Origin: an uncultured Clostridia bacterium
GTDB taxonomy: Bacteria; Bacillota; Clostridia; Christensenellales; CAG-314
DNA length: 64,000 bases
NCBI GenBank assembly: GCA_944336125.1
Contig: CALVLA010000001.1
Span: 96,414-160,413, forward strand
Direction of reading: 5' to 3'
Shown here: positions 5,896-48,534 of the stretch, piece after piece
How positions within the stretch are numbered: position 1 is the first letter of the stretch
Layout of the letters: each line of letters begins with the position of its first letter
Notes under the pieces: model-generated
The model's input: the letters and a program-made list of their open reading frames with translations, nothing else
The model's database searches: none
What the model was told of the DNA's origin: nothing
Program-made: the position numbers and the translations under genes

Positions 5896-5926
5896 AAGCC
5901 CGAGTGTTTCGGGCTTTTTCTTTTTT
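5896..5926 (+). terminator. Intrinsic terminator after bioY
   Basis: Stem agcccga/tcgggct (5897-5903 / 5909-5915) followed by tttttctttttt. Confidence 0.75.
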
Positions 5927-6320
5927 AATCTATTTTGTTTACTCCGTCTTTGTCGCTGAGCTCTGCTTCGTCCACTTTGATTTTAAACACAGCCAAAAAC
6001 TCGCATTGGGGCGTACCGTAATGCTTTTCCAAAACGGGGCATGCTTCAAACATTTTTGTTTTTGTTTCAATATCCTGGCATTCCTCCGCTTTTCCGCTTA
6101 TCCTAATCCAATCGCGGCAGCAGTCCTTAATGGCGACAAGCTGAACGTTTGGGTTTTGCTTCATCTGGCCGTAAACTTCCTTTTTGTTTGAAGTTGCTAT
6201 GTAAAGGTCACTGCCAAACTCGGCAACCGCCCCGAAAGGACGTCCTATCGGACTGTCGTCTTTTACAGTCAAAACAAAAAATCTTTGGCATTGTTTCAAA
6301 AATTCAAATTTTTTACTCAT
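5925..6320 (-). CDS. Pyridoxamine 5'-phosphate oxidase-like (FMN-binding split-barrel) family protein
   Basis: 131 aa with the pattern FFVLTVKDDSPIGRPF...YIATSNKKEVYGQMKQNPNVQL, typical of the PNPOx-like / general stress protein 26 family. Confidence 0.55.
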   Translation of the reverse strand: MSKKFEFLKQCQRFFVLTVKDDSPIGRPFGAVAEFGSDLYIATSNKKEVYGQMKQNPNVQLVAIKDCCRDWIRISGKAEECQDIETKTKMFEACPVLEKHYGTPQCEFLAVFKIKVDEAELSDKDGVNKID

Positions 6321-7347
6321 TCGTATCCTCCTCTTTGTTTTGCTTCAAACTAAGCGTCGGGCATGCGTTAAGCGTCATGTCGGCAAAATCAATTCCTTCT
6401 CTCATAAGAAAATAACCTTGCGACGCTATCATTGCGGCATTGTCTCCGCAGTATTTCAATTCAGGCAAAAACAGGTTTATTCCCTGCTTGCGACATTGTT
6501 GGGAAGCGTATTCGCGCAAAAAACTGTTTGCGCCGACGCCTCCCGCAACACAAAGTTTTTTGTACTTTTGCGACGCGATTTTTACGGCTTCGTCAACAAC
6601 GCCTTTTACCGCGGCAACGGTAAAGCTTTTGGCCACGTCGTTTTGATTTACCTCTTCGCCTATCTGACTTTTGTTGTGAAGGTAATTTATGACGCCGGTT
6701 TTAAGGCCGCTGTAACTGAAGTTTCCGTCTTTCATGACAACCGATTTAAAGTTTATGTTGTCTTGTCCTTCCTTTGCCAGCCTGTCGATATGAACGCCGC
6801 CGGGATAAGGAAGACCCAAAGTCCTTGCGACCTTGTCAAAAGCTTCGCCGCACGCATCGTCGATTGTGGTGTTAAGCACGCGGTAATCGGTATAACTTTT
6901 TACGTCAACGATTGCCGTGTGTCCTCCGCTTGCCAAAAGACATATGAAAGGCGGTTCAAGTTCAGGATGAGTTATATAATTGGCGCAGATGTGTCCTTCG
7001 ATGTGGTTTACCTTGATGAGAGGAAGTCCCGTTGCCTGGCAAAAAGCCTTGGCGAAAGAAACGCCTACCAGCAAAGCTCCGACAAGTCCCGCGCCGTAAG
7101 TAACCGCCACGCAAGACAAATCGGCAGGAGAAACGCCTGCCGTTTTTAATGCCTCAGCTACAACGCCGTCAATATTTTTTACATGGTTTCTGCTTGCGAT
7201 TTCAGGCACAACGCCCCCGAAAGGACGGTGAATCTCAATTTGCGAGTTGACTACGCTTGACAAAACTTCCCTGCCGTTTTTGACTACGGCGGCGGCAGTT
7301 TCGTCGCATGACGACTCGATTCCCAAAATCAAAAAATCTTTTTCCAT
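6313..7347 (-). CDS. tsaD: tRNA N6-adenosine threonylcarbamoyltransferase
   Basis: 344 aa with ILGIESSCDETAAAVV, HIEGH and the conserved Kae1/TsaD core. Confidence 0.95.
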   Translation of the reverse strand: MEKDFLILGIESSCDETAAAVVKNGREVLSSVVNSQIEIHRPFGGVVPEIASRNHVKNIDGVVAEALKTAGVSPADLSCVAVTYGAGLVGALLVGVSFAKAFCQATGLPLIKVNHIEGHICANYITHPELEPPFICLLASGGHTAIVDVKSYTDYRVLNTTIDDACGEAFDKVARTLGLPYPGGVHIDRLAKEGQDNINFKSVVMKDGNFSYSGLKTGVINYLHNKSQIGEEVNQNDVAKSFTVAAVKGVVDEAVKIASQKYKKLCVAGGVGANSFLREYASQQCRKQGINLFLPELKYCGDNAAMIASQGYFLMREGIDFADMTLNACPTLSLKQNKEEDTNE

Positions 7348-34439: not shown

Positions 34440-34475
34440 AAAAGTCATTTATGCTTCCGTAGTTAAATGGATATA
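34440..34475 (+). repeat. Partial copy of the tRNA-Arg 5' flank plus tRNA positions 1-23
   Basis: aaaagtcatttatgcttccgtagttaaatggatata is identical to 34569-34604. Similarity with a few substitutions and a 1-nt indel extends about 15 nt further upstream. Confidence 0.9.
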
Positions 34476-34581
34476 CTTCGCTTCCGCTCCGTGGCGTTCG
34501 CCGCAGCAGCGGCTCGGCTTAACAGCCCCGGGCTGTCCGTTTTTCAAACAAGCAAGTTTTTCAAGCACAAAAGTCATTTAT

Positions 34582-34656
34582 GCTTCCGTAGTTAAATGGA
34601 TATAACAGCCCCCTCCTAAGGGGCCGTTGTGGGTTCGATTCCCGCCGGGAGTACCA
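34582..34656 (+). tRNA. tRNA-Arg (anticodon CCT), CCA encoded
   Basis: Hand-folded cloverleaf. The acceptor stem is GCTTCCG/CGGGAGT, the D arm GTTA-AATGGATA-TAAC, the anticodon arm GCCCC-CTCCTAA-GGGGC (anticodon CCT), and the T arm GTGGG-TTCGATT-CCCGC. The discriminator is A, followed by CCA. Confidence 0.85.
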
Positions 34657-34685
34657 CCGCCGTCCTTTCGGACGGCTTTTTGTTT
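34657..34685 (+). terminator. Intrinsic terminator after tRNA-Arg
   Basis: Stem ccgtcc/ggacgg with loop tttc, followed by ctttttgttt. Confidence 0.75.
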
Positions 34686-34758
34686 CGTTTGGGAATCTCA
34701 CCATGTGACGCGATTGACGCAATGCGTAACAATCGCTATTCCGTCGCTTCGCTCCTTA

Positions 34759-34808
34759 CGATTCCCGCCGGGAGTACCACCGCCGTCCTTTCGGACGGCT
34801 TTTTGTTT
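34759..34808 (+). repeat. Direct repeat of the tRNA-Arg 3' end plus its terminator (att-like scar)
   Basis: The 50 nt cgattcccgccgggagtaccaccgccgtcctttcggacggctttttgttt are identical to 34636-34685. Confidence 0.9.
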
Positions 34809-34835
34809 TAAAAAAGCGGCGTTGTTACGCCGCTT
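34809..34835 (-). terminator. Intrinsic terminator at the end of the island transcription units
   Basis: Stem aagcggcg/cgccgctt (34814-34821 / 34828-34835) followed on the minus strand by a T-run (plus-strand A-run 34809-34815). Confidence 0.75.
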
Positions 34836-35965
34836 TAATCATTATATCCTTCCGGGTCATTTGAATAACCAAAAATCTCCGCTCTGTACTCCGCGTTTTC
34901 ATCAAGTGCCCCTTTAAACAAACAGTTTTTTATCGAATGTTTGCCGTTAACATAACCTGTTATTCCACCCGCACAACCGGGTGAATTTATTTTGGCATTT
35001 GCTTCGCAACCAAAAATTCCGCCTTTCCTCGATATCAGCCAGTCAGGATTTCCGCTGTAACCGGCAATTCCGCCTGCACACATTTCGTAGTATTCTTTTT
35101 CTTCTGAATATACACAGGAAACTTCGCCGTTAAAAACACAATTTTCGACTGTTCCCCACGAATTCGAGCCTACTATTCCGCCGGCAGTTCCCGTCGCCGT
35201 AATATTTCCGCTTACGGTACAGTCTTTTATCACAGAATCTAGCATACTTGAAGCAATTCCGCCGGCGGAGCTTGAATTTATTCCGTCAAAATCGCTCACG
35301 TCAATATGTACGTTTTCCATTTTCACACCATAAACAAGCGCATTTTTTAGTGAGCCGAACAGTCCACCCGCGCAGCCACCGTAAGGTCCGTTGAAAATTT
35401 CTTTCGAAGTCGAAATTGTAAGATTTTTTATCGTATATCCGTCAGGGTTTACAAACATACCGGAAAACTCGTTTCCTGCGGGATAATTTCCCAACGGCTC
35501 CCAGTTTTTGACGGATGCCAAATCTATGTCGGCTTTCAAAACATAAACTCCGTCCTTTTTGTTGTTTATGTTTTGCAGGTCTGAAACAGTGCGTATTGGC
35601 ATCATTTGGCTTTGGTCAAAGGAATACAACCTGCATAGATTTGTTTGAAAAACCGTCGAAGAATAATTGTTGTACAAATTAACTTTTATGTCGGAAACTC
35701 CGCATTTGACTGCGGTCACCGTGTTTCCTTCTGCCTTGTATATTCCGTTAGGCGATTGTACTATTTCGAATTTGTCAATTTTAAAGCCGCAGTTTTTAAA
35801 AATTTCGTATATATCAAATTCTTTTTTTTGACCGCTTTCCAAAACAACGGAATAAACCTCATAATTGTTAACGTCATTGGAAAAATATCGATATGTATCG
35901 GTACAGCCGCACAACAAAAATACAGTGGCAACGGAAAGTATTAAGCTTAAAAATTTTTTCATCAA
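34835..35965 (-). CDS. GLUG-motif surface lipoprotein (paralog 1)
   Basis: Signal peptide MMKKFLSLILSVATVFLLCGC. An Ig-like N-domain is followed by the pattern RTVSDLQNI...YVLKADIDLASVKNWEPLG...FSGMF...GYTIKNLTI. Repeated AGG(I/L)(A/V/F/T)G turns are typical of GLUG-motif proteins. Confidence 0.65.
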   Translation of the reverse strand: MMKKFLSLILSVATVFLLCGCTDTYRYFSNDVNNYEVYSVVLESGQKKEFDIYEIFKNCGFKIDKFEIVQSPNGIYKAEGNTVTAVKCGVSDIKVNLYNNYSSTVFQTNLCRLYSFDQSQMMPIRTVSDLQNINNKKDGVYVLKADIDLASVKNWEPLGNYPAGNEFSGMFVNPDGYTIKNLTISTSKEIFNGPYGGCAGGLFGSLKNALVYGVKMENVHIDVSDFDGINSSSAGGIASSMLDSVIKDCTVSGNITATGTAGGIVGSNSWGTVENCVFNGEVSCVYSEEKEYYEMCAGGIAGYSGNPDWLISRKGGIFGCEANAKINSPGCAGGITGYVNGKHSIKNCLFKGALDENAEYRAEIFGYSNDPEGYND

Positions 35966-36066: not shown

Positions 36067-37151
36067 CTACTTCTGGGAATCTTCGAAAGCAAATCCGTAA
36101 TACTCGCCTTTGTACAAAGCAGTCTCACTAAACTGACCTGAAAACGAACAATTTTGTATGCACCTTTTGCCCCAGACGTAAGCAGAAATTCCCCCGACGC
36201 TTCCCTCCGCCGTAAGATTTGCATTGACGCGACAATTAACTATTCTTGCTTGGAGGGGGTCTTTGCTGTCAGCCATCGTGTATCCGACAATACCTCCTGC
36301 CACGTTAGAAGTGTGATCAATTTTTTCATCTCTGCTTATATTTGCCACGTTTCCTTCAAACGTACAGTTTTCGATTGTGGCAAACGAGAACGCGCCCGCA
36401 ATTCCTCCGGCATAACTTGCCGCAGTAACATTGCCTTTTACACTGCAATCAAGCAAATATCCGTTATAAAGAGAGCCAACGATAGCACCGGCCGAAGCCG
36501 TCCAGCCCACAGAAGTATAGGCGTTAACGTTTACGTTTTCCAACTTTATGTTGTAAAGAAAGCCGCCGGAAATCATATCAAACAATCCGCCGCGATTTTC
36601 CGGCTCGCAGGAAGTCTCGTTTTCGATATTCAAGTTTTTAATTACGTAGCCGTTTGGATTTATAAACATACCGCTGTATCTATCAATAGGCTTCCAATTT
36701 TCAACAGACGACAAATCCAAATCGTTCATTAAGAGGTAATTGTTTTTACCTTTTACTGCCTGCAAATCCTCCACTGTGCGGATTTTAAAAAAATCCTTTT
36801 CGTCGTATGCAAAAAGCATACCCAGACTCACTTCGTAAACCATCATCGTTTCGTTGTTATAGAGCTTTGCCGATACATCGATGACACCCGTATTCTTGGC
36901 AGTAATGGTATTTCCCTTTACCGAATAAATTTTGGGAGAATTGTTTATTTCGATTCGGTCTGCTTTAACTGAACAGTTAGCAAAAATTTCGTCAAAGTCA
37001 AACTCCTTGGACTCACCCACTTTTAACGCAAAGCGATAAACTGAATAATTTTGTGGCTTTTCGTATGAAAGTTTGTAATTGTTGCATGAGCATAATGAAA
37101 AAAACAAGCGCAACAAAAATTATGAAGCATAAAAGTTTTGACTTTTTTCAT
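36067..37151 (-). pseudogene. GLUG-motif surface lipoprotein (paralog 2), with the reading frame broken in a T5 tract within the signal peptide
   Basis: ATG 37151 has a GGAGGA RBS and encodes MKKVKTFMLHNF. The frame then drifts to a stop, while the 349-aa body (36067-37116, LLRLFFSLCSC...) is in another frame. One extra T in the run at 37115-37119 would give MKKVKTFMLHNFLLRLFFSLCSC. Confidence 0.6.
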
Positions 37152-37254: not shown

Positions 37255-39495
37255 TTATTCATTGTACTGAGAAATTTCTGCAATGTTCAAGCTTTTTGAT
37301 TTTGAACTGTAAACGTTATTGTATCCCTTAAATTTCAAAGTGTTGTTTTCCGAAATTTCCAATTTCGCACCGACAACGTTGGAACTACTACACAAACCGA
37401 TAGTTTTATTTTCCGTCAAAATATAGACACCGGAATTCACAGATTCGCTGTTTGAAAAATATTGTGTGCAATCCTGTCCTTCAAACACATTCGAACCATC
37501 CGGACAATAGCAATAACACCCGTCGCAACTTGTAGGAGGTACGGTTCGTGTTTCTGAAGAATAATAATTGCCCGAAGAAACTTTGATTTTTGTCGGTTTG
37601 TCTTTGACCAATCCGTTGACGGTTTTTACCACATCGGTTGTACCGTTTCCGGACAAAGTCAATGAAGAAGCTACAACCTGCCACTTGTCTGACACAACGT
37701 AAGCAGATATATTCAATTCATTACCGGCCAATACCGTAACAGAGCGAATGCCGTCGTAAGCTTTACCGTTGACAACAAAATAGTCAAAAGTATAACCTGC
37801 ATCTACAGAAGGTATTATTTTAATCACATAATTCGGGAAAATCGGTGTTGTTTCTATTGAAATAGGTTCATACTCGGCAGGACATTTATCTCCGGGATTA
37901 ACAAGCATGTTGTTTTCACACCAGCAATAGCACCCTCCGTCGCATTCCGGCTCATATTCTCCGTGAATTTGTTTTTGATAACTTATATGTATACCTTGGT
38001 CAATTTGCAAATTTAGTATTGTGCGAACGACAGCCGTAGTCGTTATGTTTACGTTGCCCGATACCTCACAAGTAACGGTTTTGTCTCCGCTGTATGCCTG
38101 CGAATTTACTTTAAACAAGTCTATCCAATATCCGTGGGCTGCCGAAGCGGTAACTGTCAACACATCCCCTGTCAAAATTTCAGCCCCGTCAGTCAAAGGG
38201 GTGCCATTTTTTGAAACCGTAACAGTTGTATTTGCCCCTTGTGAAACAGAAAGAGTAAATCTGCCCACGCTAGTAGTTGCAAGCGTTAAGTTACCCGAAA
38301 CCTCAATGGTTTTTGTAAATGATTGTTCAGGATTGCCGTTTACCAAAAGACCCGTCACGTCATAATTTGAAAGAGACGGCACGGCTGAAATCGTAAGAGT
38401 TTCGCCGTGAATAATCGTTGCGCCGTTCGATAATGATTGTCCCGACGAATTAGTGACGTTAATTGTTGTGCCTACAGCCGGGTTTAATGTCAAGGTATAA
38501 CCTGATACCGTTGAGATAACCAGCGGCTGTTTAACAGTAATCCCCGTATCAACCCCGCCTTCGGAAGTCATTCCGTTAATTGTCGTTGAAACGATTTTAT
38601 TGTCACTCAAAGCATATGTCCTAATTTGCAGATATCTACCGTGTCTTACGGTATTCGCGCTGTATTTGTTTTCTACATACCTGGTACAATACTGGCTGTT
38701 TTGAATTTCCGTGCCGTCCTCACAATAGCAATAACACGTATCGCACAAATCGCCGTAAATTTCATAGTCAGAATTATAAAGATAAATTTCCGTATTAGGC
38801 GCGGCATTGAGAGTAATAGGATGTTGCACCAAACCGTTTGCCTGAACTACAGCCGTAACGTTTCCCGTGACGGAAGCAACAGAATTCGTTCCGCTTTGGT
38901 TGAGATAAAACGTAGGATCCGCATAATTCTCGTCGGCATTTGCCGATATAGATACACTGTCGCCGTAATAAAGTTTCAAACTGCCCGCCGATGAAGGATT
39001 TGCAATAAGCTGCCCCGTATTCCCGACAAGGCTGAAACTTCTGGAAATCGAGTAAGACACGTGATCCGGAGCGGCAGGATAAGACAATGTGAATTCCTGA
39101 ACTTCCATTTTGACGCCGGTAATTTTTACATCGCTTTGGACGCTTGCCACTGAAAAGGTCTGCCCTTGTTTCTCGTAAGTAATTTCACAAGCAAGCTTAA
39201 ACTGCGTTGACGAGTGTTCCGAAAGCGTGAGATTAAACGTTCCGTCAACTCTCGAACATTTGTTGACGAAAGAAAAATTTTTCGTCATTTTGTTTGTTTG
39301 ATTAGAAATTTCAAAAGTGCCGTTTAAAGGAACGGTTGTACTGACGTCACCGGTACACAAGCCGTTGAGATGTACCGTCAAATTTCCCTCAAGCGTCACT
39401 TTTTTTGTAAAATCGTATTGCGGCTTGTCGAACAGCACATAACTGCCGTTTGACAAAACCGTGTTGCTAAAAGTTGCAATTTGTATATCTGCCAT
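37255..39495 (-). CDS. Leaderless 746-aa beta-rich protein with three CxxCYC(Y/W)C cysteine clusters and InlB-B-repeat-like modules; unknown function
   Basis: The start is at ATG 39495 (MADIQIATF), preceded by AGGAG, and there is no signal peptide. Cys clusters are encoded near 38722-38745, 37921-37944 and 37504-37527. It is a paralog of the 46511-47959 gene. Confidence 0.6.
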   Translation of the reverse strand: MADIQIATFSNTVLSNGSYVLFDKPQYDFTKKVTLEGNLTVHLNGLCTGDVSTTVPLNGTFEISNQTNKMTKNFSFVNKCSRVDGTFNLTLSEHSSTQFKLACEITYEKQGQTFSVASVQSDVKITGVKMEVQEFTLSYPAAPDHVSYSISRSFSLVGNTGQLIANPSSAGSLKLYYGDSVSISANADENYADPTFYLNQSGTNSVASVTGNVTAVVQANGLVQHPITLNAAPNTEIYLYNSDYEIYGDLCDTCYCYCEDGTEIQNSQYCTRYVENKYSANTVRHGRYLQIRTYALSDNKIVSTTINGMTSEGGVDTGITVKQPLVISTVSGYTLTLNPAVGTTINVTNSSGQSLSNGATIIHGETLTISAVPSLSNYDVTGLLVNGNPEQSFTKTIEVSGNLTLATTSVGRFTLSVSQGANTTVTVSKNGTPLTDGAEILTGDVLTVTASAAHGYWIDLFKVNSQAYSGDKTVTCEVSGNVNITTTAVVRTILNLQIDQGIHISYQKQIHGEYEPECDGGCYCWCENNMLVNPGDKCPAEYEPISIETTPIFPNYVIKIIPSVDAGYTFDYFVVNGKAYDGIRSVTVLAGNELNISAYVVSDKWQVVASSLTLSGNGTTDVVKTVNGLVKDKPTKIKVSSGNYYSSETRTVPPTSCDGCYCYCPDGSNVFEGQDCTQYFSNSESVNSGVYILTENKTIGLCSSSNVVGAKLEISENNTLKFKGYNNVYSSKSKSLNIAEISQYNE

Positions 39496-39575
39496 AAAAT
39501 CTCCTGTAACTAACAAAAAATCAACCACCTAAAAGATGATTGATTTTAGTTAAAATAAAATTTTTAGTAATTTTT

Positions 39576-39604
39576 GCCGCTTGCGTTTTCTAAGCGCAAG
39601 CGGC
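39576..39604. terminator. Strong 10-bp GC-rich hairpin between the second TM gene and the 746-aa gene (terminator or processing site)
   Basis: gccgcttgcg / cgcaagcggc with a 9-nt loop. There is no U-run on the minus strand and only a weak T-rich tail on the plus strand. Confidence 0.3.
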
Positions 39605-39646: not shown

Positions 39647-39988
39647 TCAAAGGAAAAACAATTCAACAAGCATAAATGCCATCACGCCCAAAAGCAAAAC
39701 ATCGAGCGTAAAAACAAATTCCCAAGAGGTGTATCCCACTGTAGGTTTTTTTGGATAAGCAATTCTATAAATCTTGTAATAAACAATAATCCAAAACGTT
39801 GCCCACGCAATCGTCGCGCTTATCAGGCAATATTTGTCTATTGTTCCGCTGATAAGAAACGAAACAACAAAACAAACGCCCGAAAGGACAAACTGTCCCA
39901 ACACTGCAAGGAACCAATGTTCCAAAAAAAATGTTTCCATGTAGGCTTTTATGGATTCGCCTTTTTGTCTTTTTCTTAATTTTTTCAT
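39647..39988 (-). CDS. Small polytopic membrane protein, candidate (orphan) immunity protein, paralog of 40040-40438
   Basis: 113 aa with 3-4 hydrophobic helices. It shares the (Y/L)EH(L/W)FL...LI(E/S)G(K/T)I..(F/Y)C pattern with its neighbour. No obvious SD is present. Confidence 0.45.
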   Translation of the reverse strand: MKKLRKRQKGESIKAYMETFFLEHWFLAVLGQFVLSGVCFVVSFLISGTIDKYCLISATIAWATFWIIVYYKIYRIAYPKKPTVGYTSWEFVFTLDVLLLGVMAFMLVELFFL

Positions 39989-40039: not shown

Positions 40040-40438
40040 TCAAGTGAAAATTTTTGTTACCAATCCCACAACAACAATGGCTATTATAATGCCAACTAAA
40101 AATACAGCTGTCATCACCCATCTACCGTATAAAACCATGGACCAAGAAATATCGTTTTCAATATTTATATTTTTCTTTTTTAAAATCTCAAACAAGCATT
40201 TTCGTAAAATTTGCGTGGCTATTACAACGCCTGTTATAAAGACAACACCAAAACAAAATTCGCCGATTTTTCCTTCGATAAGCCACATAAGCAAAAATGT
40301 CGAAACTGACAAACAAAGCTCAAAAAAAATGTAAAGGAATAAATGTTCATACATTAAATAAAACTGATAATCATAAAACATTTCTTTGTCATACGGCATT
40401 CTGACGTTTTTAACTAATTTTTTTAACAACCTTTTCAT
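40040..40438 (-). CDS. Small polytopic membrane protein, candidate cognate immunity protein for the RHS C-terminal domain
   Basis: 132 aa with 3-4 hydrophobic helices and a GAGGA RBS. It lies 61 nt downstream of the RHS stop, the classical toxin-immunity position. Confidence 0.5.
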   Translation of the reverse strand: MKRLLKKLVKNVRMPYDKEMFYDYQFYLMYEHLFLYIFFELCLSVSTFLLMWLIEGKIGEFCFGVVFITGVVIATQILRKCLFEILKKKNINIENDISWSMVLYGRWVMTAVFLVGIIIAIVVVGLVTKIFT

Positions 40439-40499: not shown

Positions 40500-43400
40500 T
40501 TATGCCAAGTCTTCCAATAAGTCTTCAAGAACCAATGATATGATTATGATTAATATTACCGTAATTATCGCTCCGGGCAATCCGCCAACAATAGAACCCA
40601 GTTTTATTATTAAGAAAGATATACCTTCTGACAAGAAAAATACTTTGGCGTTTTTTTCCAAACTATACAAGAAGTCGCCTGTTTCCGCAACATCACTAAA
40701 AAATGAAATGAAAAAATTAGTAAGAGATAATGCTATTGTAAATGATTTGTATTCTATTTTTTTTAAAATTTCAACAAAATCGAAGGATGCATTTGTAAAA
40801 TCTAATATGTTGCCGATAACCGCGGCTCCGACAAACAAAGCCTGCCCCACACTGATTTGAGTGTTGTTGAACAGATAGTCTGTTGGCGAAATAACGGCTT
40901 TTGCTTCCTTAACGTTGAGAGGTCTGTTGGCACAGTAAGCAAAGAGATTCAGCCCGTCTTTTTCAAACGACAAATTCGACATGTCTCTCATAGCCAAGTA
41001 TCTGCCTGTTTCAGGGTTATAATATTCTTTACCGGTGTAATACAAGCCACTTTCCGCATCATAATAATAACCTTTGTAACCGATGCGGAACAATGTTGAA
41101 GACGAAATATTTGTTCCTTCCAATGTTTTAGGGTAATGAGGTTTTCCGTATGCGTCATAATTTATCGCAAGAACACGTCCGCTGTCTCCGTAAATTCCGA
41201 CTACACTTCCGAAGATATCTCTGTCAAAACTGAAAACAACAAAATTATTTCCGTCTTTCATGAAAGTATCATCATCCTCAAAGTCAGGACGATAAAGTTT
41301 GACAGCGCAAACTCCAATTTCATCATATATGTAATGAATCATATATAACTCTTGCACTGTATCCTGTCTTACATTATAACATCTTTCTGCAATGAGCTTG
41401 TCACCGTCATAATAGTAGCATCGGTTTTCACTTACATTATTTGAAATAACATTTCCGTTTGTGCGTATGACAGTTGATGTTTCCCTGAACGTCCTTTTAC
41501 CGTACAAATCGTAATCAAATTTATAAGTGTCTGTCGTTTCAGTTGTATTGATGCCATGAATAATCTCCGTATTGGAAAATTGTTTTAAAAGACCTCTTTC
41601 CCAGCTAACATTTTTTCCGTTAATTTTTGAAGGACAACCCTCATTATAACTGACGTTATCGTCTATTATTGTACTTCCAAATGTATGTTTTTTCAATAGG
41701 TACGGGTTATTTTGATGATACTCAAATGAATTGTTTCCCGAATTTGTACCTGTTACGTTTTTTGCTGTAATATTTCCGTACGAATCATAATTATATGTTA
41801 TCGACTGACCTGTCAAGCCGTTGCTTTCAGTCTTTAATCTACCGTTTTCATATGTGTACGAAATTAATTCGACACCGTTTGAGGAAACTTTAGTTATGTT
41901 TCCCGCCGTATCGTATTCATACTCTCTAACAACTTCTATTCCTTGCCCCACATCGTTAAAAGGTGTGTGATTAGTGATTTCCTTACTTACGAGATTTGTT
42001 TCGACTCCGTTTTTGATTAGGTATTGATATGTTTTTTGCAAACTGCTTCTGTTTGAAAATATACCGACCGGAGAAGAGCAGTATGTTTTTTTCAATCGGT
42101 TAATATCATCTACCTCACGCTGCAAAACAATGTTATTTGCTTCCATATTAGAATTAGACACATCACCGTTGTGGTTAGGCGAAACATAAGTCACGTTTAC
42201 GGTTTTGCCGTCACGGTCAAATTGATTTTTAAAATACATTATTCCTGCCGCTTCGTTGTTTATCGCATAACCCCTGTATGCCTTTCCGTCTTTTACAAAA
42301 GATTTTTTCTTCCATACCAACTTTCCGGTACAGTTAAACACTTCTTCTTTAAACTCGTCGGTAGAATACGTTTTTTTCGTACCTGCCAAATCATCGATAA
42401 TCTTGCTGATTTGTGGTTTCGATGTTCCGTTTACGTAACTGATAGAAGCCGACTTGTCTCCTACCGAAACAGCAGTCATCCTACCGTACTTGTCAAAAGT
42501 AGTTGTCTGTGAAGAATTACCGAATGTTTTTGTAATTGTTTTTCCGCTACCGGAATTTATGACGCTGCTTGCAAAAATTTGCTCATCGTTAATTTTTACA
42601 CTAGTTAAATCACCAAGAGCAGAATAACCGAATTCATACTCGGCATTACCTTGAGATATGCTTTCTATATTACCTTTATTGTAGGTTAAAGCAGTATCAT
42701 TCACATTAACAATTTTTTCCTTGAAATTGTCGTAAATATATGTAATATTTCCTGTCGGTGAAAAAACTTTGTTCACAATGTTATGCGGCATTAAATACTC
42801 ATAACGCGTAATAAAACCGTTTGCGTCTGTTTCGAAATTTTTATGACCTGTCTGAACGTCATACGATGATGACATCACAAGACTTTTATCACTTGCAGAA
42901 GCATTATATTTGCTTACTTTTGTTTCAGTAAGATTACCGAAAGAATCATAAGTATATTCGGTAACAACATTATTTTCCAAAACATATTTGACTGTTCCGT
43001 CATAATTTGTTCGTACAATTTTGCCGTAACTACCGTAAGTTTTATTTGACAAAAGATCTTTAACCGATGTAACAGACTCAATATAATTGGGCAAGAATGT
43101 TTCCTCAACATCTATACATGCTCTAAACTGATTTCCTGCACCTTTATCTTGAGACGAGTCGTCAATCAATTTAGTTCTGTAAATTAATGATACAATTTTA
43201 TCTTGACCTTGCTCTGCAGGCTGTATCATATTTAAATTTATAAAGTTTGAGTTAACCGTATCAATTTTAAAAGAGCATTTGCTTGCAGCAACATTGCAAA
43301 TTCTTTTTTTACCGTTGCAATAAATTATATCGAATGAATTTCTGCTTTTTGCCGCATTTCCAAGAGTTTTCCTCAAATCATTAGTGGTAAATTCATTTGC

Positions 43401-44939
43401 GCCGAAAGCAGTAAGTATTCCATCAATACTTATGCCACTGATTGCTTTTACGCTATATTCGGTATCTTGTACTTCGGTTCCTGTTTTTTCTTTAACAATA
43501 AGTATTTCTGAATTAGCCAAACTTGAAGTTGCGCTTTCTTGAGAATACAATTCTTCATTGCTATTATCTGTAATATTAAATATACTTTCAATTTCACCGT
43601 CATTTTTGAAGTTATATTTCTTTTTTGCACCCAACTCGTCAGTAACAACGGTATTGTCATTGTTGTAAGCAAAAGAAGTGAACATGACGGCATCGGCAAG
43701 ACGAGCAACCTTGATTACACGGCCCAATTCATCATAAGTCATGTTTAATTCTTTGTAGTCGTCGCCGAAAATTTTAGTAAGTCTGCCGTTTAAGTATCCG
43801 AACTGCGCCTGAATACTTTCAACGGTGCTTCCGTCCACTTGCGCTTCTTTGTGAATTTTTGTCAGACGACCGTCGATGTAAGTAAACTTCAACACTTCGT
43901 CCGCGCTATGCTCGCTTCCCGTGTAAGAAATGCTTGAAAGCAAGTCGTTTTGGTATGAAAACGTCGCTTTGTAATTTCCGTTTTGAATGTAAGCTATGCG
44001 TGTGTTCGCCAAAGAATCGCCGATGTCCGAAGCGTTAACGTTGGACGAGTTATTCAAACCGCTTGCCTCATATCCGATGAAAAGGTCATTGCCCAAAGCT
44101 GAATTTATGCAACAAAGTTTGCCTTGCGGCGAAAAATGCATTTCGTTTCCGTTGACGTCGGAAAGTTTTTTGCAACTTGCAACTGTTCCCAAAAACAAGC
44201 CCAGGCCGCTCGTATCGTAAATTTTTCCGTTGCTTATATCAAAAAAGTGCGCTTTGCCGCTTGCGTCCACGTAAGAAGCATTTTGATTGTTTCCCGCAAG
44301 ATATTGATGAAAATTGGTTTTCCACCCTTTGCCTGCCTGTGTGTGAATATCCGAAAAAATCTCATCGCTGTCATAGCTTGCGCCTTTGTAAATGTGCATA
44401 AGGTTAAAAGCCGTAGCCCCGCCGCCAAACGACCAGTCGTTTCTTGAAAAATTCAAGCTGCCGTCTCGAAGGTTTACGCTTGCCGTACCTATCGAGCCGA
44501 TGTCAAAGGTTTGATAAGCGTCGGTATTTAATTCACGGTTTACGAAATCGCATTCCCTATCAGCGGTAAGTTTTACGGTAAATGACGCAGAAGCGGAAAA
44601 AGACGCCGCCGTTTTTGGAATGATTTTTACAAAAATCGTCCCTCCGCCGTTCATTTTACTTTTAGTCAAATCCAGCAAGTTTGCGGTAAAAGTGTTTTCT
44701 CCTGCCGAAAAAGTTTTTTCAAACAAAAAATGGCAAGTTTCGCAAGGCGGAGTCACCTCCGCCTCAGGCAACGCGAAAATATTTGCGGAAAACGAAGCCG
44801 ATGCGTTTACGGCAATATTTAAATTCGCTTCCGTAATTGAGTTTTCCGAAGCAGACGGATTGACCTTGTTAAAATCCGGAACAGTAATTTCAAATATTCC
44901 GTTTGCCGCAGTAAAATTTTTAATATATGTACTCTGCAT
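40500..44939 (-). CDS. RHS/YD-repeat protein (1479 aa) with no signal peptide and a hydrophobic 136-aa C-terminal domain
   Basis: Many YD repeats (YTYDSFGNLTE, YEYDTAGNITK, YNYDSYGNITA, FDYDLYGKRT, INYDAYGKP). The RHS core end is YYDAESGLYYTGKEYYNPETGRYL...DGLNLFAYCANRPLN. The start has an AAGGAGGG RBS. Confidence 0.85.
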   Translation of the reverse strand: MQSTYIKNFTAANGIFEITVPDFNKVNPSASENSITEANLNIAVNASASFSANIFALPEAEVTPPCETCHFLFEKTFSAGENTFTANLLDLTKSKMNGGGTIFVKIIPKTAASFSASASFTVKLTADRECDFVNRELNTDAYQTFDIGSIGTASVNLRDGSLNFSRNDWSFGGGATAFNLMHIYKGASYDSDEIFSDIHTQAGKGWKTNFHQYLAGNNQNASYVDASGKAHFFDISNGKIYDTSGLGLFLGTVASCKKLSDVNGNEMHFSPQGKLCCINSALGNDLFIGYEASGLNNSSNVNASDIGDSLANTRIAYIQNGNYKATFSYQNDLLSSISYTGSEHSADEVLKFTYIDGRLTKIHKEAQVDGSTVESIQAQFGYLNGRLTKIFGDDYKELNMTYDELGRVIKVARLADAVMFTSFAYNNDNTVVTDELGAKKKYNFKNDGEIESIFNITDNSNEELYSQESATSSLANSEILIVKEKTGTEVQDTEYSVKAISGISIDGILTAFGANEFTTNDLRKTLGNAAKSRNSFDIIYCNGKKRICNVAASKCSFKIDTVNSNFINLNMIQPAEQGQDKIVSLIYRTKLIDDSSQDKGAGNQFRACIDVEETFLPNYIESVTSVKDLLSNKTYGSYGKIVRTNYDGTVKYVLENNVVTEYTYDSFGNLTETKVSKYNASASDKSLVMSSSYDVQTGHKNFETDANGFITRYEYLMPHNIVNKVFSPTGNITYIYDNFKEKIVNVNDTALTYNKGNIESISQGNAEYEFGYSALGDLTSVKINDEQIFASSVINSGSGKTITKTFGNSSQTTTFDKYGRMTAVSVGDKSASISYVNGTSKPQISKIIDDLAGTKKTYSTDEFKEEVFNCTGKLVWKKKSFVKDGKAYRGYAINNEAAGIMYFKNQFDRDGKTVNVTYVSPNHNGDVSNSNMEANNIVLQREVDDINRLKKTYCSSPVGIFSNRSSLQKTYQYLIKNGVETNLVSKEITNHTPFNDVGQGIEVVREYEYDTAGNITKVSSNGVELISYTYENGRLKTESNGLTGQSITYNYDSYGNITAKNVTGTNSGNNSFEYHQNNPYLLKKHTFGSTIIDDNVSYNEGCPSKINGKNVSWERGLLKQFSNTEIIHGINTTETTDTYKFDYDLYGKRTFRETSTVIRTNGNVISNNVSENRCYYYDGDKLIAERCYNVRQDTVQELYMIHYIYDEIGVCAVKLYRPDFEDDDTFMKDGNNFVVFSFDRDIFGSVVGIYGDSGRVLAINYDAYGKPHYPKTLEGTNISSSTLFRIGYKGYYYDAESGLYYTGKEYYNPETGRYLAMRDMSNLSFEKDGLNLFAYCANRPLNVKEAKAVISPTDYLFNNTQISVGQALFVGAAVIGNILDFTNASFDFVEILKKIEYKSFTIALSLTNFFISFFSDVAETGDFLYSLEKNAKVFFLSEGISFLIIKLGSIVGGLPGAIITVILIIIISLVLEDLLEDLA

Positions 44940-44948
44940 TTTCCCTCC

Positions 44949-45725
44949 TTAATCACCTATAAACACAAACGCGTTTTTTCGAGGATTGTTTTTCATCCAC
45001 TCTACTGCGCAAAACAGCGAAAGTTTTGCGTAATTCAATTCAGAAAGCCGCTCGGTATCCCACAGTACTTTTTCAAAATTATTTTTGTACTCTGCTTTGT
45101 CATGCGGCCATACAAATCCGACGTCGGCGGCGGAAAAAATCAGATGGTGTGTTTGAATTTTCCTTTCATCCGGTTTTGCCACAAAACAATCGGCAAAACA
45201 ACCGTTTTCCTCCAGTTTTTCCCTGACTGCCCTCAAAGTAGCGCCCGTGCCCACTTTTTCAAAAACGGCGTCTATTTTTATGCCGTCAAAGACATCGCCC
45301 AACAAGTTTTTGTAAAAATCTATTTGTTTGGTGTTTCCGAATTGTCTGAAACTGTATGCGTTGTGCTCAGAAATTGTTTGTTCGAGTTTTTCTTTTAACA
45401 CTGAAAAGTCAAAACTGTTTTTGGTCTCGACAATTTCGACATTATCGAATGATTTTAGCTTTTCCTCTGTTTTTTTACTAAAAATACCTATCGGTATCAC
45501 AAACAGCTTGCTGCCTGTTTTTCGGCACTGCTCGGCAAGAGCAATGCCGAAATTTCCCGCAGTAATCTCTGCCACTGCTTGTCCGTGTTTAAGTTCGCCG
45601 CTTTTCAAGGCACTATTTATCACCCACTCCGCAAGCAACTCTTTTTTGCTTTTAACTGGACGAAAAACGTAAAGCTTCCCTTGAAGTCGGTAAAAATCAC
45701 AAAGGTTTTCCAAACTCCAAAACAT
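44949..45725 (-). CDS. Divergent CysK-fold (PLP fold type II) protein, paralog B
   Basis: 258 aa. Segments align by eye with the cysK of this window. GELKHGQAVAEITAGNFGIALA matches GDIKPGDEISEATSGNTGIAFS. AVFEKVGTGATLRAV matches AFTAGVGTGGTMMGT. NAFVFIGD matches NVVTVFADD. The start overlaps the paralog A stop (TGATG). Confidence 0.5.
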   Translation of the reverse strand: MFWSLENLCDFYRLQGKLYVFRPVKSKKELLAEWVINSALKSGELKHGQAVAEITAGNFGIALAEQCRKTGSKLFVIPIGIFSKKTEEKLKSFDNVEIVETKNSFDFSVLKEKLEQTISEHNAYSFRQFGNTKQIDFYKNLLGDVFDGIKIDAVFEKVGTGATLRAVREKLEENGCFADCFVAKPDERKIQTHHLIFSAADVGFVWPHDKAEYKNNFEKVLWDTERLSELNYAKLSLFCAVEWMKNNPRKNAFVFIGD

Positions 45726-46492
45726 CAGTCCTCCCAGTAAAGAAGTACAGTTTTACCCGGGTTCATTTGCAGCCAGTTAATAGCACCTTGTACGCTTGTG
45801 AAAAAAGTTCTTGCAGCGTTGCCCATTACGCCGAAATCACCGTTTTGATACCTGAACGCAAGATGTCCCGCCATGCTGCCCTGTACGTCAATCAGCTGAA
45901 TATTCTGATTTTTTACCAAATCGCGTATGAAAGGTTTCTTTTCATACTTTTTGTCGTCCCTGTAACATGAGTTGGAAAAACCGAATTGACACGAATTTTT
46001 CAAAATCTCGTAAAAGCCTCTCATTGTCGCGCCGCTTCCCATAAAGTCAATGAAAACATCGGGAACACGACCGAATTCGGAAACTGCCTTTTGCGCCTCT
46101 TGTTTGTAATATTCAATCATTGCCAAATCGGAAAACTGATCAAAATAGTACCAGCCCTCATTTCTCAGACGAGCAATAGCGTCTTCTTTTTCCTGCGCAG
46201 GAGTCCTGTCAATCGAAAAGCCCAAGGCGGTAATTTGATTAAACGAAACGGGATCCTCAAACTTGCCCAAAATAGGCAAAAAGTTAATGCCCCTCTGCTT
46301 GCAGACTTTTGCCACTTCTACGGCAAACCTACCTGACGAAGCGATGGAAAGCTTGTTGTTGAAAAGCCTGCCCTGCCTTTGACACGTATCAACGATATAT
46401 TCTGCCAAAGCGGCATTTTTCCCTTTAGGATTTTTGTATGCGTAAATATTACCGTTGCAGTTTTCCATAAAAATATTAAGATTTTTAATCAT
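45725..46492 (-). CDS. Divergent CysK-fold (PLP fold type II) protein, paralog A
   Basis: 255 aa with NPKGKNAALAEYIV (candidate PLP-lysine region), IASSGRFAVEVA and DFMGSGATMRGF. The same architecture as paralog B. AAGGAGAA RBS. Confidence 0.45.
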   Translation of the reverse strand: MIKNLNIFMENCNGNIYAYKNPKGKNAALAEYIVDTCQRQGRLFNNKLSIASSGRFAVEVAKVCKQRGINFLPILGKFEDPVSFNQITALGFSIDRTPAQEKEDAIARLRNEGWYYFDQFSDLAMIEYYKQEAQKAVSEFGRVPDVFIDFMGSGATMRGFYEILKNSCQFGFSNSCYRDDKKYEKKPFIRDLVKNQNIQLIDVQGSMAGHLAFRYQNGDFGVMGNAARTFFTSVQGAINWLQMNPGKTVLLYWED

Positions 46493-46510: not shown

Positions 46511-47959
46511 TTAAAAATATTGTTCGACCTTAGTAATAGTCAATGTTTTTTGAGGCGTATCTCCACCTTTGTAACCGTTGAATGTAAGTTGGTTTGTACT
46601 TATGCTTACAGTCGTATCATGCAAAGACGATGAACTAGACGACATTGAAAGCGAAATGCTTGTACCGGCATTGTTAGAAGTATGCAGACCTTCGTTTATG
46701 TAAATGTAATCTCTCCTCCACTCTCCGCACAAACTTCCGTAATCCACCTGACCGCCGTCGGCACAGTAGCAATAGCAGCCGCCGTCGCACCACTCTGGCT
46801 CCGTCGAGCCGGGCGCATAGTAGCGCGTGCTGTAGGATCCGCTTGAAACAGTGATACGCGTTTTTCTTCCTGCAACTATACCCGGCACGGATTTTGTTAT
46901 ATTATCCGTTGTTCCGCTAAACGTATAGGTATTTGAATTTACCGTTCTCCATGCGACAGATTGCAGTTTTGTCTCAATAGTCATTTTTCCGTTCACTATT
47001 GTATTACTGTTTGCCATAACACTGAAAAATGTACTTTGAAATGTTTTGTTTCCCACCTTAACGTAATCCAAAAATTTCCCGTTCGGAATGCTTGTTTGGA
47101 TATAAATCACATCGCCGTAAGTAATATAATCAAGGTTGTAATCACCGTAAATTGTAGGACAATCTTCTCCCCATGGTACCGAGGAGCCGTCCTGACAATA
47201 GCAATAGCATCCTCCGTCACAGTCAAATGACGGATGAGGCGGATACAAAAATTTTTTCAAACTTATCGTAGTCCCAGTATAAGGTTGCAAAACTATTGGA
47301 TAATGAATTTTGCCAGACGTATTGAAAACTAACGAAACGTTTCCGGATATGTTGGTTTTAGATGTAACTCCGGCCGTATCAAAGCCGAAAGACGGTGCGT
47401 AGTACCCGTTCTCGGCAGATGCAGATACCGTTAGGGAATCGCCGTTGTAAACATGCACGGATCCGCTATAATTAGGACTGTTTATCAACACTCCTGTTTC
47501 CGCAACTTCACTTGCCGTTCTTGTCACCGTGTAAGTGTAGCCTTCAGGACAAGCCGGATAACTAAGTACATAACCCGGAATTTCCTGATAAATTTTCGTA
47601 ACGGAAATCTGCCCCGACACATCCCACGCCATAAATGACTGACCTTGAAAAGTGTAATCCACCGTGCAATAAAGAGCCCCGTTAGAAACTGTCAGGCTCA
47701 ATGTCGCATCAATCGACGAGCACTTATTTGTGAGCTTGGCCGAAAAATTTTTACTGTTTTGTCCGGCCGGAATTTCGTAAACACCTGCAGTAAAAATATC
47801 CCCTGTCACGTTTTCGCCGCAGCTTCCCGATATACTACCCGACCAATTTCCCGATATATTTACGGAAATAGGATAGTTGGAATAGATTTCGTCAAGAGCA
47901 AACGAAACCTGCGTACCTTTACTTAAAACTTTGTTTTCGGAATTTAATATTTGTTCCAT
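46511..47959 (-). CDS. Leaderless 482-aa beta-rich protein with two CDGGCYCYC clusters; paralog of 37255-39495
   Basis: The start is at ATG 47959 (MEQILNSE), preceded by GGAGG. The shared N-terminal ~240 aa includes LSYPA(A/C)P and GDS(L/V)(T/S)(V/I)SA(S/N)A(E/D)(N/E)(G/N)Y(Y/A)(A/D)P. Cys clusters are encoded near 47198-47221 and 46766-46789. Confidence 0.6.
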   Translation of the reverse strand: MEQILNSENKVLSKGTQVSFALDEIYSNYPISVNISGNWSGSISGSCGENVTGDIFTAGVYEIPAGQNSKNFSAKLTNKCSSIDATLSLTVSNGALYCTVDYTFQGQSFMAWDVSGQISVTKIYQEIPGYVLSYPACPEGYTYTVTRTASEVAETGVLINSPNYSGSVHVYNGDSLTVSASAENGYYAPSFGFDTAGVTSKTNISGNVSLVFNTSGKIHYPIVLQPYTGTTISLKKFLYPPHPSFDCDGGCYCYCQDGSSVPWGEDCPTIYGDYNLDYITYGDVIYIQTSIPNGKFLDYVKVGNKTFQSTFFSVMANSNTIVNGKMTIETKLQSVAWRTVNSNTYTFSGTTDNITKSVPGIVAGRKTRITVSSGSYSTRYYAPGSTEPEWCDGGCYCYCADGGQVDYGSLCGEWRRDYIYINEGLHTSNNAGTSISLSMSSSSSSLHDTTVSISTNQLTFNGYKGGDTPQKTLTITKVEQYF

Positions 47960-47970
47960 AAAACCTCCAG

Positions 47971-48372
47971 TCATAAAATTCGATTGATAACGACATTTCC
48001 GATTTTTTCCGTACACGTTTTTGACTTTGTGTTTTCCTCTCCGACAAATGTTTTTACGTTTACGTTTTTAGTAAAATCCACCAAATCATCGATTTTTTCA
48101 TCCAGCATGCCAAAATCAAAGGAAATACCGTTATCCAAAGCGTATTTTCTCATAAGAGTCATTACGTATTCTTTTTTCTCCTGTCCGCTGAAATTTACAA
48201 ATTGTTCCGCTTGTTTGATAAGCGGCAAAATTTCATCGCAGATTTGAACGATGTTTTCCGCCGTTGTTTTTGCTTTTTCACTTTTCAAAAACTTTGCGAT
48301 AAATGTGATAACCGCAATTATCAGGCTAATTACAGTGCCTGCCAACGAAATGATAATTTCCGCATTTTCCAC
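47971..48372 (-). CDS. Holin-like small membrane protein (resembles the LL-H phage holin family)
   Basis: 133 aa with a GTG start preceded by AGGAGG. It has a single N-terminal TM (IIISLAGTVISLIIAVITFIAKFL), then a helical domain with AEQ...GQEKKEYV...D..ID pattern as in Holin_LLH proteins. This is recognised from memory only. Confidence 0.4.
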   Translation of the reverse strand: MENAEIIISLAGTVISLIIAVITFIAKFLKSEKAKTTAENIVQICDEILPLIKQAEQFVNFSGQEKKEYVMTLMRKYALDNGISFDFGMLDEKIDDLVDFTKNVNVKTFVGEENTKSKTCTEKIGNVVINRIL

Positions 48373-48462
48373 AACTTTTTCCTCCTTTGCAAAATCAAGT
48401 ATAGTTATCGCTAAAAACAGAATTCAATAGTAGCTGTCAATATAAAATTTTTTATAAAAAAC

Positions 48463-48492
48463 AAAAAACCGACGATGAGACGTCGGTTTTTT
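48463..48492. terminator. Bidirectional intrinsic terminator separating the polysaccharide locus from the island
   Basis: Stem ccgacg/cgtcgg (48469-48474 / 48481-48486), flanked by A6 and T6. Confidence 0.75.
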
Positions 48493-48534
48493 ATGTTAAT
48501 TTTAGTTTTTTTACGTTGTATAAAAAAAGCGCCG

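Follow-up and report, generated by a model that had tools for sequence, protein, structure and literature searches.

The enzymes of the CysK family are dimers, and the known cases of CysK moonlighting involve CysE, CdiA-CT, CymR and EGL-9. A protein-borne nucleophile is also known in this family, as CysM of M. tuberculosis carries out β-replacement with the thiocarboxylate of CysO. Holin-dependent release of large toxins is known for the Tc toxins, via the type 10 secretion system (T10SS), and for clostridial TcdE. CysE and CdiA-CT dock a C-terminal isoleucine in the active-site cleft of CysK (PMC5562914). In C. elegans, the CysK paralogue CYSL-1 has lost its biosynthetic activity and serves as a ligand-gated binding protein, a non-enzymatic sensor in which residues for pyridoxal 5′-phosphate (PLP) can be retained; both CysK–CysE and CYSL-1–EGL-9 are precedents for a ligand-gated clamp (PMC5562914). 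The release of Tc toxin was found to be holin/endolysin-dependent (PMC10847048). Here we describe two tandem, shortened CysK-fold proteins, PalpA and PalpB, which are encoded directly upstream of an RHS toxin gene in an uncultured Clostridia bacterium (GCA_944336125.1, contig CALVLA010000001.1). Its LeuS reaches at best 68–71% identity to species representatives that carry the labels Christensenellaceae or Clostridia and stem from animal and human guts. The 64,000-nt stretch analysed is called the window, all coordinates and strands are positions in it unless a locus is named, and the Cys-motif protein encoded upstream of PalpA is called 'up' for short. When 8 million full texts were searched for a link between PLP or cysteine-synthase-like genes and the loci of RHS or polymorphic toxins, only the CysK/CdiA-CT work was returned, and neither PLP nor holin genes were mentioned in two comparative-genomics papers on polymorphic toxins. 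To our knowledge, and in these literature searches, PALP-fold accessory genes have not been described for any RHS system.

Both genes lie on the minus strand, PalpA at 45725..46492 (255 aa) and PalpB at 44949..45725 (258 aa). A previous sequence-only reading of the window had proposed two open reading frames (ORFs) of these lengths with a CysK fold; the ORF listing confirmed the former, and both profile and structure comparisons agree on the latter. In the Pfam scan, both proteins pass the gathering cut-off of 35 bits for PALP (PF00291), PalpB with 53.7 and PalpA with 45.4 bits, and a phmmer search of the PDB with PalpB returned cysteine synthases (E = 1e-11). The AlphaFold2 models of PalpB (predicted local distance difference test, pLDDT, 91.2; predicted template-modelling score, pTM, 0.86) and PalpA (pLDDT 89.2, pTM 0.85) display the two-domain alpha/beta fold of the CysK/TrpB type. 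Foldseek comparison with the PDB gave E = 1e-16 for PalpB and 5e-13 for PalpA at query-normalised TM-scores of 0.72–0.83, and every listed top match is CysK, CysM, CBS, SbnA or a closely related PLP enzyme. The nearest similarities in NCBIfam and PDB are to SbnA, CysK, CysM, β-cyanoalanine synthase and O-ureidoserine synthase. Nevertheless, the NCBIfam cysteine-synthase and SbnA models were matched with only 21–61 bits against curated equivalog cut-offs of ~344–390; in particular, PalpB scored 54–56 bits against the CysK models and 29 against CysM, and PalpA 16–21 bits (TIGR01139, TIGR01136, TIGR01138; cut-offs 344–394). Judged by sequence, PalpA and PalpB are members of the PALP fold family but no cysteine synthases, and they stand outside the curated cysteine-synthase, SbnA, CBS and dehydratase families. 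Within the fold-type-II PLP proteins, they represent a branch of the CysK/CysM group that has diverged and become shorter. With 24% identity between them (E = 2e-13), the two are assessed as old paralogues and not as the outcome of a recent duplication. Decay into pseudogenes was ruled out by intact ORFs and by selective conservation across 19–97% identity.

The active-site residues were compared with the housekeeping CysK of the same window, numbered from the first ATG of its ORF. The PLP (Schiff-base) lysine K60 of CysK is K28 in PalpB and invariant in 14 PalpB-like proteins, while PalpA carries N26 in this column and an invariant K25 one residue earlier. A candidate PLP lysine had been proposed for both proteins; of the two, only PalpB has a lysine in the aligned column. 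The Asn loop is TAGNFG in PalpB (T55-A-G-N58) and SSGRFA in PalpA as compared with TSGNTG in CysK, and N90 of CysK corresponds to N58 in PalpB and R55 in PalpA. The glutamine Q160 of CysK is present in both as Q128 (PalpB) and Q119 (PalpA). The phosphate-binding Gly-rich loop, G197-T201 (GTGGT) in CysK, is G159-T163 (GTGAT) in PalpB and G152-T156 (GSGAT) in PalpA and is conserved in both families. The Asn-loop and glycine-loop alignments of the sequence-only reading are borne out by these comparisons, and its notion of a shortened N-terminus also stands; its estimate of about 40 lost residues does not, as the loss is 30 residues if the window cysK ORF is taken to begin at its first ATG and ~19 if it begins at 29966, the start used in that reading. 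CysK residues 1–30, through 'GNT', are absent, and PalpA and PalpB begin right after this motif. Three further deletions shared by both proteins had escaped that reading, namely KLEY (CysK 49–52), the HxIQGIG lid loop NGSVGPHRIQGIGDEFV (CysK 231–247) and the C-terminal tail (CysK 312–345). In each of the two models, pLDDT is lowest where another segment takes the place of the lid loop. Evidently, a complete CysK substrate site is present in neither protein, PalpB having the Asn loop and the glutamine and the lid loop being gone from both.

CysK/CysM, CBS and SbnA share the two-domain fold with the pair, and PalpB keeps their Schiff-base lysine, Asn loop, glutamine and phosphate loop. In contrast to CysK/CysM, however, PalpA and PalpB measure ~255 instead of 300–345 aa, scores of 54–61 bits stand against equivalog cut-offs of ~344–390, PalpB has a K-K dyad in place of (V/I)-K, the two form an unequal tandem pair of which one member is without the lysine and the asparagine, and they are never found in a cysteine-biosynthesis context. 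Within the close PalpB family (12 sequences, 44–97% identity), K27, K28, AEITAGNFG, Q128 and G159-x-G-A-T163 are invariant. When the comparison is widened to the 14 PalpB-like proteins, of which the most distant has 19% identity, the invariant columns shrink to eight: K28, G57, Q128, Y138, D152, T163, G257 and D258. Four of these eight, K28, G57, Q128 and T163, align with residues or loops of CysK which, from what is generally known of CysK, we regard as ligands of the cofactor or the substrate. No other argument for the binding of PLP and a carboxylate-bearing ligand by PalpB is as strong, and PalpB is probably the PLP-binding subunit. The PalpA family keeps G-K-N, SSGRFA, Q119 and GSGATMRGF, which means that the lysine and the asparagine are lost and the phosphate loop is retained. 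Yet PalpA is the best-conserved protein of the cassette, with 64–78% identity as compared with 55–59% for PalpB, 41–68% for 'up' and 31–57% for RHS. The loss of both residues at the highest conservation in the cassette suggests a scaffold or pseudo-enzyme subunit, and PalpA is probably degenerate and non-catalytic.

The link to RHS genes, suspected from the window, recurred when genomic co-occurrence was surveyed. In clade 1, the RHS gene follows in 8/8 distinct PalpB-containing cassettes, all on unrelated contigs. The gene order is holin-like, 'up' (393–747 aa), PalpA, PalpB, sometimes a third PALP, RHS (~1450–1500 aa) and, where the contig reaches, a small unrelated gene; the start of the cassette has an amidase in place of the holin-like gene in one case and lies off the contig in another. 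The third PALP, found in L011-L014 and L100-L101, is PalpA-like, with G-K-Y and SSGRFA. The rank of identity to the window is broadly alike for 'up', PalpA, PalpB and RHS: L008 and L005 come first, L096 next, and L011/L013 and L001 last. The cassette thus appears to have been inherited as a unit. Clade 2 is represented by the P0044 cluster (114 members) and the loci L104-L108 and L006, in which an 'up'-like protein of 301 aa, a PalpA-like protein of 235 aa and a PalpB-like protein of 254 aa are encoded, with an NMT1-type ABC transporter operon on one side and valS on the other. There, no RHS or holin gene was found within the 10 kb flanks. In L006 (3802-8848 of that locus), a serine recombinase gene and 'up'/PalpA/PalpB have one piece of an NMT1-family gene on either side, and this gene is intact beside the trio in L104 (7208-10765); the arrangement suggests recombinase-mediated rearrangement or insertion. 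More distantly related is P0052, a single PALP with an 'up'-like gene of 334 aa before it and a terminator-like hairpin after it.

It was found that 'up' stands directly upstream in every fetched contig with a family PALP, wherever the contig reaches, and each of the members of the 'up' family (16 clusters) on a fetched contig adjoins PALP genes. Since clade 2 has 'up', PalpA and PalpB without RHS, 'up' is the deepest partner of the short PALPs. The linkage between short PALP and 'up' is the oldest and strictest one, and the linkage to RHS is real but confined to one clade.

The families are tiny: among 5.8 billion clusters, PalpB accounts for 14 and PalpA for 12. An exhaustive search of 1.84 billion cluster representatives with a hidden Markov model gave eight proteins below E = 1e-30, and the fringe of the same search contains proteins of 255–262 aa with the same shortened layout, the K-K dyad and an ..IGD end. 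Two proteins, P0075 and P0129 (451–456 aa), join a short PALP domain (RKK, SDGAFG loop, ..VYVGD end) to a C-terminal region of ~190 aa that is absent from other short PALPs. Scans with the PalpB pattern of GTDB species representatives, JGI metagenome contigs and IMG/VR yielded no relatives, nor did a JGI scan with the distant relative P0203, a tblastn search of plasmids with 'up' and PalpA, or one of phages with 'up'. The PalpB matches in phage records were dismissed as ordinary full-length cysK/cysM, the best of them (H1) being a canonical CysK on a high-GC contig. This rare family is restricted to uncultured Clostridia of the gut.

The Cys-motif protein itself has 482 aa in the window (46511..47959, minus strand). 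Its start was placed at MEQIL at 47959, as inferred from the homologues, and not at the GTG at 48016 of the ORF finder. The protein is beta-rich and has no Pfam family, transmembrane (TM) helix or signal peptide; searches of Pfam, PHROG and PDB sequences returned nothing convincing. A resemblance of residues 12–67 to the Q-beta coat/A1 protein was regarded as chance, as single chains gave E ~0.1 (0.12) and only the tandem fusion gave 4.6e-5. Members of the family contain two or three copies of the invariant motif CDGGCYCYCxDGxxVxxGxxC; in the window there are two (CDGGCYCYCxDGxxV..G..C) and a conserved end, ..LTFNGYK..K.LTITKVEQYF. In the RHS-less clade the motif is reduced to CDGCYC...C, and the protein adjoining P0052 has only a degenerate DGCDNDC. 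The spacing of the cysteines looks like that of a four-Cys metal knuckle. The N-terminal ~130 and C-terminal ~150 residues are conserved, while the middle varies by inserted beta-domains; short forms of 285 aa consist of the two ends only, and longer members give a weak match to 'divergent InlB B-repeat'. The possibility that the end of 'up' (..TKVEQY[YF]) docks free in the PALP cleft in the manner of the CysE tail was weakened, as P0038 and the P0052-linked protein extend beyond this motif. A paralogue of 'up' with 757 aa and three Cys motifs (37255..39528, minus strand), encoded downstream of the operon and recognised by tblastn and motif inspection, has inserted B-repeat-like domains and a weak Flg_new_2 match, and is most like the 747-aa 'up' of L001 (32% identity over the full length, tblastn).

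The RHS/YD-repeat protein (40500..44939, minus strand, 1479 aa) matches Pfam RHS_repeat at E = 3e-12 and NCBIfam Rhs_assc_core with 44.4 bits against a cut-off of 32.5. A conserved N-domain of ~125 aa with a CxxC pair is followed by a DUF6531-like region, the RHS repeats and the Rhs-associated core. Homology of the N-domain to that of 'up' was considered and rejected (hhalign probability 0.4%). Between cassettes, the RHS homology stops at about residue 1350–1375, and the C-termini beyond the core are unrelated. In the window, the last ~150 residues are cassette-specific and hydrophobic with two predicted TM helices; all four complete RHS C-termini are hydrophobic or Gly-rich by eye. The cleavage motif PxxxxDPxGL is present in L001 and degenerate in the window protein, which ends in ..LEDLLEDLA and not in a C-terminal isoleucine. 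Repeats with a core, followed by a C-terminal domain and a downstream gene that both vary, are the hallmarks of RHS polymorphic toxins, and all are found here. The unrelated C-termini beyond the core, together with L096, in which two additional orphan RHS C-terminal pieces stand after a split RHS gene, mark the RHS of the cassette, as far as can be read from the sequences, as a polymorphic toxin with exchangeable tips.

Downstream of the RHS gene, a three-TM protein of 132 aa (40040..40438, minus strand; ORF listing and TM scan) is a candidate immunity protein and had no tblastn match in the other cassette loci. The pair itself was ruled out as immunity proteins, being conserved and upstream, while the variable membrane proteins are downstream. 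At the other end, the first gene of the cassette encodes a holin-like protein of 133 aa (47971..48372, minus strand) that matches Pfam Phage_holin_6_1 with 28.4 bits against a cut-off of 24.9 and a PHROG holin at E = 7e-9, with a TM helix at residues 6–24. Homologues with 46–51% identity occupy the same position in L005, L008, L009 and L013, and holin-like genes also lead L098 and L100. The holin-like proteins of the window, L005, L008, L013 and L100 have in common a conserved extreme C-terminus, (I/V)(V/I)N(R/Q)(I/V)L, preceded by ~20 variable residues. In L098 (8850-10083 of that locus), an 'up'-like gene (285 aa, a single Cys motif) and another holin-like gene of 115 aa are found past the RHS gene and a small membrane protein, in the reverse order of the operon start. 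No peptidoglycan hydrolase was found in the window cassette. In L001, an endolysin-like protein with Amidase_3 and PG_binding_1 domains (5620-6684 of that locus) stands at the holin position, and this swap hints at lysis-type release. The cassette is like RHS polymorphic toxin systems and the systems of holin-dependent toxin release in its RHS shell, variable C-terminal toxin, variable downstream membrane protein, lack of a Sec signal and holin-like leader gene. It differs from them in having no TcA-like translocator, T6SS (type VI secretion system) or T7SS (type VII secretion system) genes and, in the window, no endolysin.

We favour, with a probability of about 45%, the reading that PalpA and PalpB form a CysK-like heterodimer with a competent PLP site in PalpB and a degenerate scaffold in PalpA, that 'up' is its obligate partner and that the trio is an accessory module of the RHS operon. 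The heterodimer is the most likely state of the pair, because CysK-family enzymes are dimeric and the two genes overlap. PalpB would hold the only competent PLP site, and PalpA would be the degenerate, highly conserved scaffold. Without the N-terminal segment, lid loop and C-terminal tail, the cleft would be open to a bulky partner, and this partner, at the cleft or of the whole dimer, would be the 'up' protein encoded directly upstream. In the window, the trio would be the constant accessory module of an RHS operon made up of holin-like, 'up', PalpA, PalpB, RHS and small membrane immunity protein, and the module may help to mature, assemble or target the toxin complex. The PLP site would then either carry out chemistry on the partner or bind it in a ligand-gated manner, and would not activate a particular toxin domain, as the pair is conserved while the C-terminal parts of RHS differ. 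RHS, which is without a Sec signal, would probably be released through the holin-like protein, a route that would resemble the one of the Tc toxins. Three roles can be envisaged for the PLP site: chemistry on the partner, e.g., β-replacement with a protein thiol, a ligand-gated clamp, or a purely structural role. The last seems the least attractive, because K28, Q128 and T163 are invariant at 19% identity.

Several observations weigh against this reading. N58 varies among the distant PalpB-like proteins, and the residue of PalpB that contacts the pyridine N1 is not assignable from sequence. The precedent of CYSL-1 means that conservation of PLP residues alone is no proof of catalysis by PalpB. 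L096 (8501-17180 of that locus) has 'up', PalpA and RHS but no PalpB, and its RHS gene is frameshifted; possibly it is a decaying locus. Moreover, the RHS-less clade 2 demonstrates that the pair needs no RHS neighbour.

Among the alternatives, the sequence-only reading had put forward a toxin activator or chaperone of the kind known for E. coli, in which CysK binds CdiA-CT(EC536). Here the pair would bind the C-terminal toxin domain of RHS, whose tail would lie in the cleft, and would either activate this domain or maintain its solubility. The comparison is apt insofar as a CysK-fold protein is tied to a polymorphic toxin in both cases, the PALP genes stand directly upstream of RHS at tight spacing, and the hydrophobic toxin part of the window protein might need shielding. 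However, the RHS C-termini differ completely between cassettes and PalpA and PalpB are conserved, the window RHS ends in ..EDLA without an isoleucine, and the pair occurs without any RHS in L104-L108 and L006. Besides, the known case employs the housekeeping CysK of the target cell with one specific toxin domain and nothing operon-encoded, whereas the present pair is dedicated, encoded in the operon, found across unrelated toxin domains and also found without RHS. These findings contradict the activator proposal, and we regard it as very improbable. Another suggestion of that reading, an enzyme acting on a Cys-rich partner, is consistent with the data and seems to fit them best, because 'up' is the one gene that always accompanies the short PALPs. 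In its explicit form, an aminoacrylate formed on PalpB from O-acetyl- or O-phospho-serine, Ser or Cys would be transferred to the CDGGCYCYC thiols of 'up', or sulfide would be supplied for a metal site there. The invariant catalytic residues of the PalpB-like proteins and the linkage to a Cys-motif protein in both clades speak for such a modification, as does the cleft that should open with the loss of lid loop and tails. CysM structures, including the CysM–CysO complex 3dwg, are among the best PalpB matches, and CysM is a CysK-fold enzyme with a protein-carried second substrate, as proposed for PalpB; yet the cassette has no ThiS/MoaD-like Gly-Gly carrier, and the candidate partner is a beta-rich Cys-motif protein of 480–750 aa. 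The four-Cys spacing resembles an ordinary structural metal-binding knuckle, the 'up'-like protein adjoining P0052 lacks the full motif, the cassette contains no serine acetyltransferase or kinase gene, and we know of no protein modification of this kind. In this explicit form, modification of 'up' is quite unlikely.

An ordinary enzyme of small-molecule metabolism, whose linkage to the cassette would be incidental, was also considered; it would make or degrade a free amino acid (a β-substituted alanine, H2S, or a diaminopropionate precursor) for the cell or as a co-toxin. The closest NCBIfam and PDB similarities are to enzymes of this type, the catalytic residues are kept in PalpB-like proteins, and the trio of L104 adjoins an NMT1-type ABC transporter. 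Against these stand scores far below every curated equivalog cut-off, a deleted substrate lid loop, one degenerate subunit, no other biosynthetic genes in any cassette and the strict linkage to a non-enzymatic beta-rich protein, which together make this explanation unlikely. The fold could also be a purely structural adaptor between the RHS shell and a stalk formed by the Cys-motif protein, and PLP would then be structural or absent. This would suit PalpA, which has lost key residues and is nonetheless the most conserved protein of the cassette, and 'up', whose length varies by inserted B-repeat-like domains between conserved ends as in stalk or fibre proteins; CYSL-1 is a precedent for a CysK homologue acting by binding (PMC5562914). 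CYSL-1 resembles the pair as a CysK-fold paralogue outside metabolism in which PLP residues are possibly kept for binding, but it is full-length, single and eukaryotic and regulates a prolyl hydroxylase, and sulfide gating is not evidenced for PalpA and PalpB. The invariance of K28, Q128 and T163 at 19–25% identity is hard to explain without ligand binding, and the RHS-less clade would require a separate explanation, so that a mere adaptor also seems quite unlikely.

A known fold family is found here in a new, conserved genomic context, which suggests an accessory role of an enzyme fold in toxin systems. RHS export and delivery in Gram-positive bacteria without T6SS is poorly understood, and the cassette offers an RHS protein without Sec signal, a holin-like first gene and three conserved accessory genes, two of them from a fold not previously linked to RHS. 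If PLP is bound and the pair works on or with 'up', the biology of the CysK fold would be extended beyond moonlighting to a dedicated protein of minimised CysK fold that acts on another protein, and there would be a way into the study of toxin delivery in gut Clostridia that are abundant yet uncultured. If the pair is instead an ordinary small-molecule enzyme, the finding would come down to a rare subfamily of PALP proteins that is new. To specialists in RHS toxins or in PLP enzymes, a toxin cassette with a dedicated and minimised pair of CysK-fold proteins would be unexpected, though the taxonomic reach of the pair is narrow. In a bolder version, which we consider doubtful, the pair and 'up' would be an unrecognised module in which an open-cleft PLP site acts on a protein, by an aminoacrylate-derived group on the Cys motifs or as a ligand-gated clamp. 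Such a module would have been recruited in gut Clostridia as the assembly or targeting device of a holin-associated RHS toxin independent of Sec, T6SS and T7SS, i.e., a new route of RHS delivery in Gram-positive bacteria.

The genes of the window cassette form a tightly packed row on the minus strand in the order holin-like, 'up', PalpA, PalpB, RHS, three-TM protein, a TM-rich ORF and a hairpin, with short junctions throughout and a Shine-Dalgarno sequence of its own at each. The stop codon of PalpA and the start of PalpB share 1 nt (..GAC TGATG..), and GGAGG is located within the last PalpA codons. The stop codon TAA of PalpB (44951-44949) is followed by 9 nt with AAGGAGG before the RHS ATG at 44939, which confirms the spacing noted previously; from this spacing, translational coupling of PalpB to the RHS gene is plausible. 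The TM-rich ORF (39647..39988, minus strand, 113 aa) after the putative immunity gene may be a second immunity-like or orphan gene, and it is followed by a perfect 29-nt hairpin (39576-39604) that is probably the end of the operon. At the opposite end, a bidirectional hairpin terminator (48461-48494) ends the preceding sugar-transferase gene, and a promoter-like site, TTGAAT-18-TATACT (48398..48427, minus strand), seen in a consensus scan only, comes just after it, upstream of the cassette. The sequence upstream of the holin-like start contains AAAGGAGG and then GTG. No Sec signals were found in the operon, and PADLOC gave no defence-system match.

The gene row belongs to a low-GC stretch of ~34.8–48.5 kb with a GC content of 0.34–0.42 as compared with 0.45–0.48 in the flanks, and the DNA coding for the Cys motif is present four times in this island. 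Downstream of the 757-aa paralogue of 'up', two GLUG-motif proteins are encoded at 36067-37116 and 34835-35965. A tRNA-Arg(CCT) gene (34582-34656) marks the left edge of the island. The 3′ end of the tRNA and a hairpin are covered by an exact direct repeat of 50 nt (34636-34685 and 34759-34808), and the 5′ part of the tRNA by an exact repeat of 36 nt (34440-34475 and 34569-34604). These repeats around the tRNA-Arg gene (34440-34808) look like attachment-site remnants of an integrated element.

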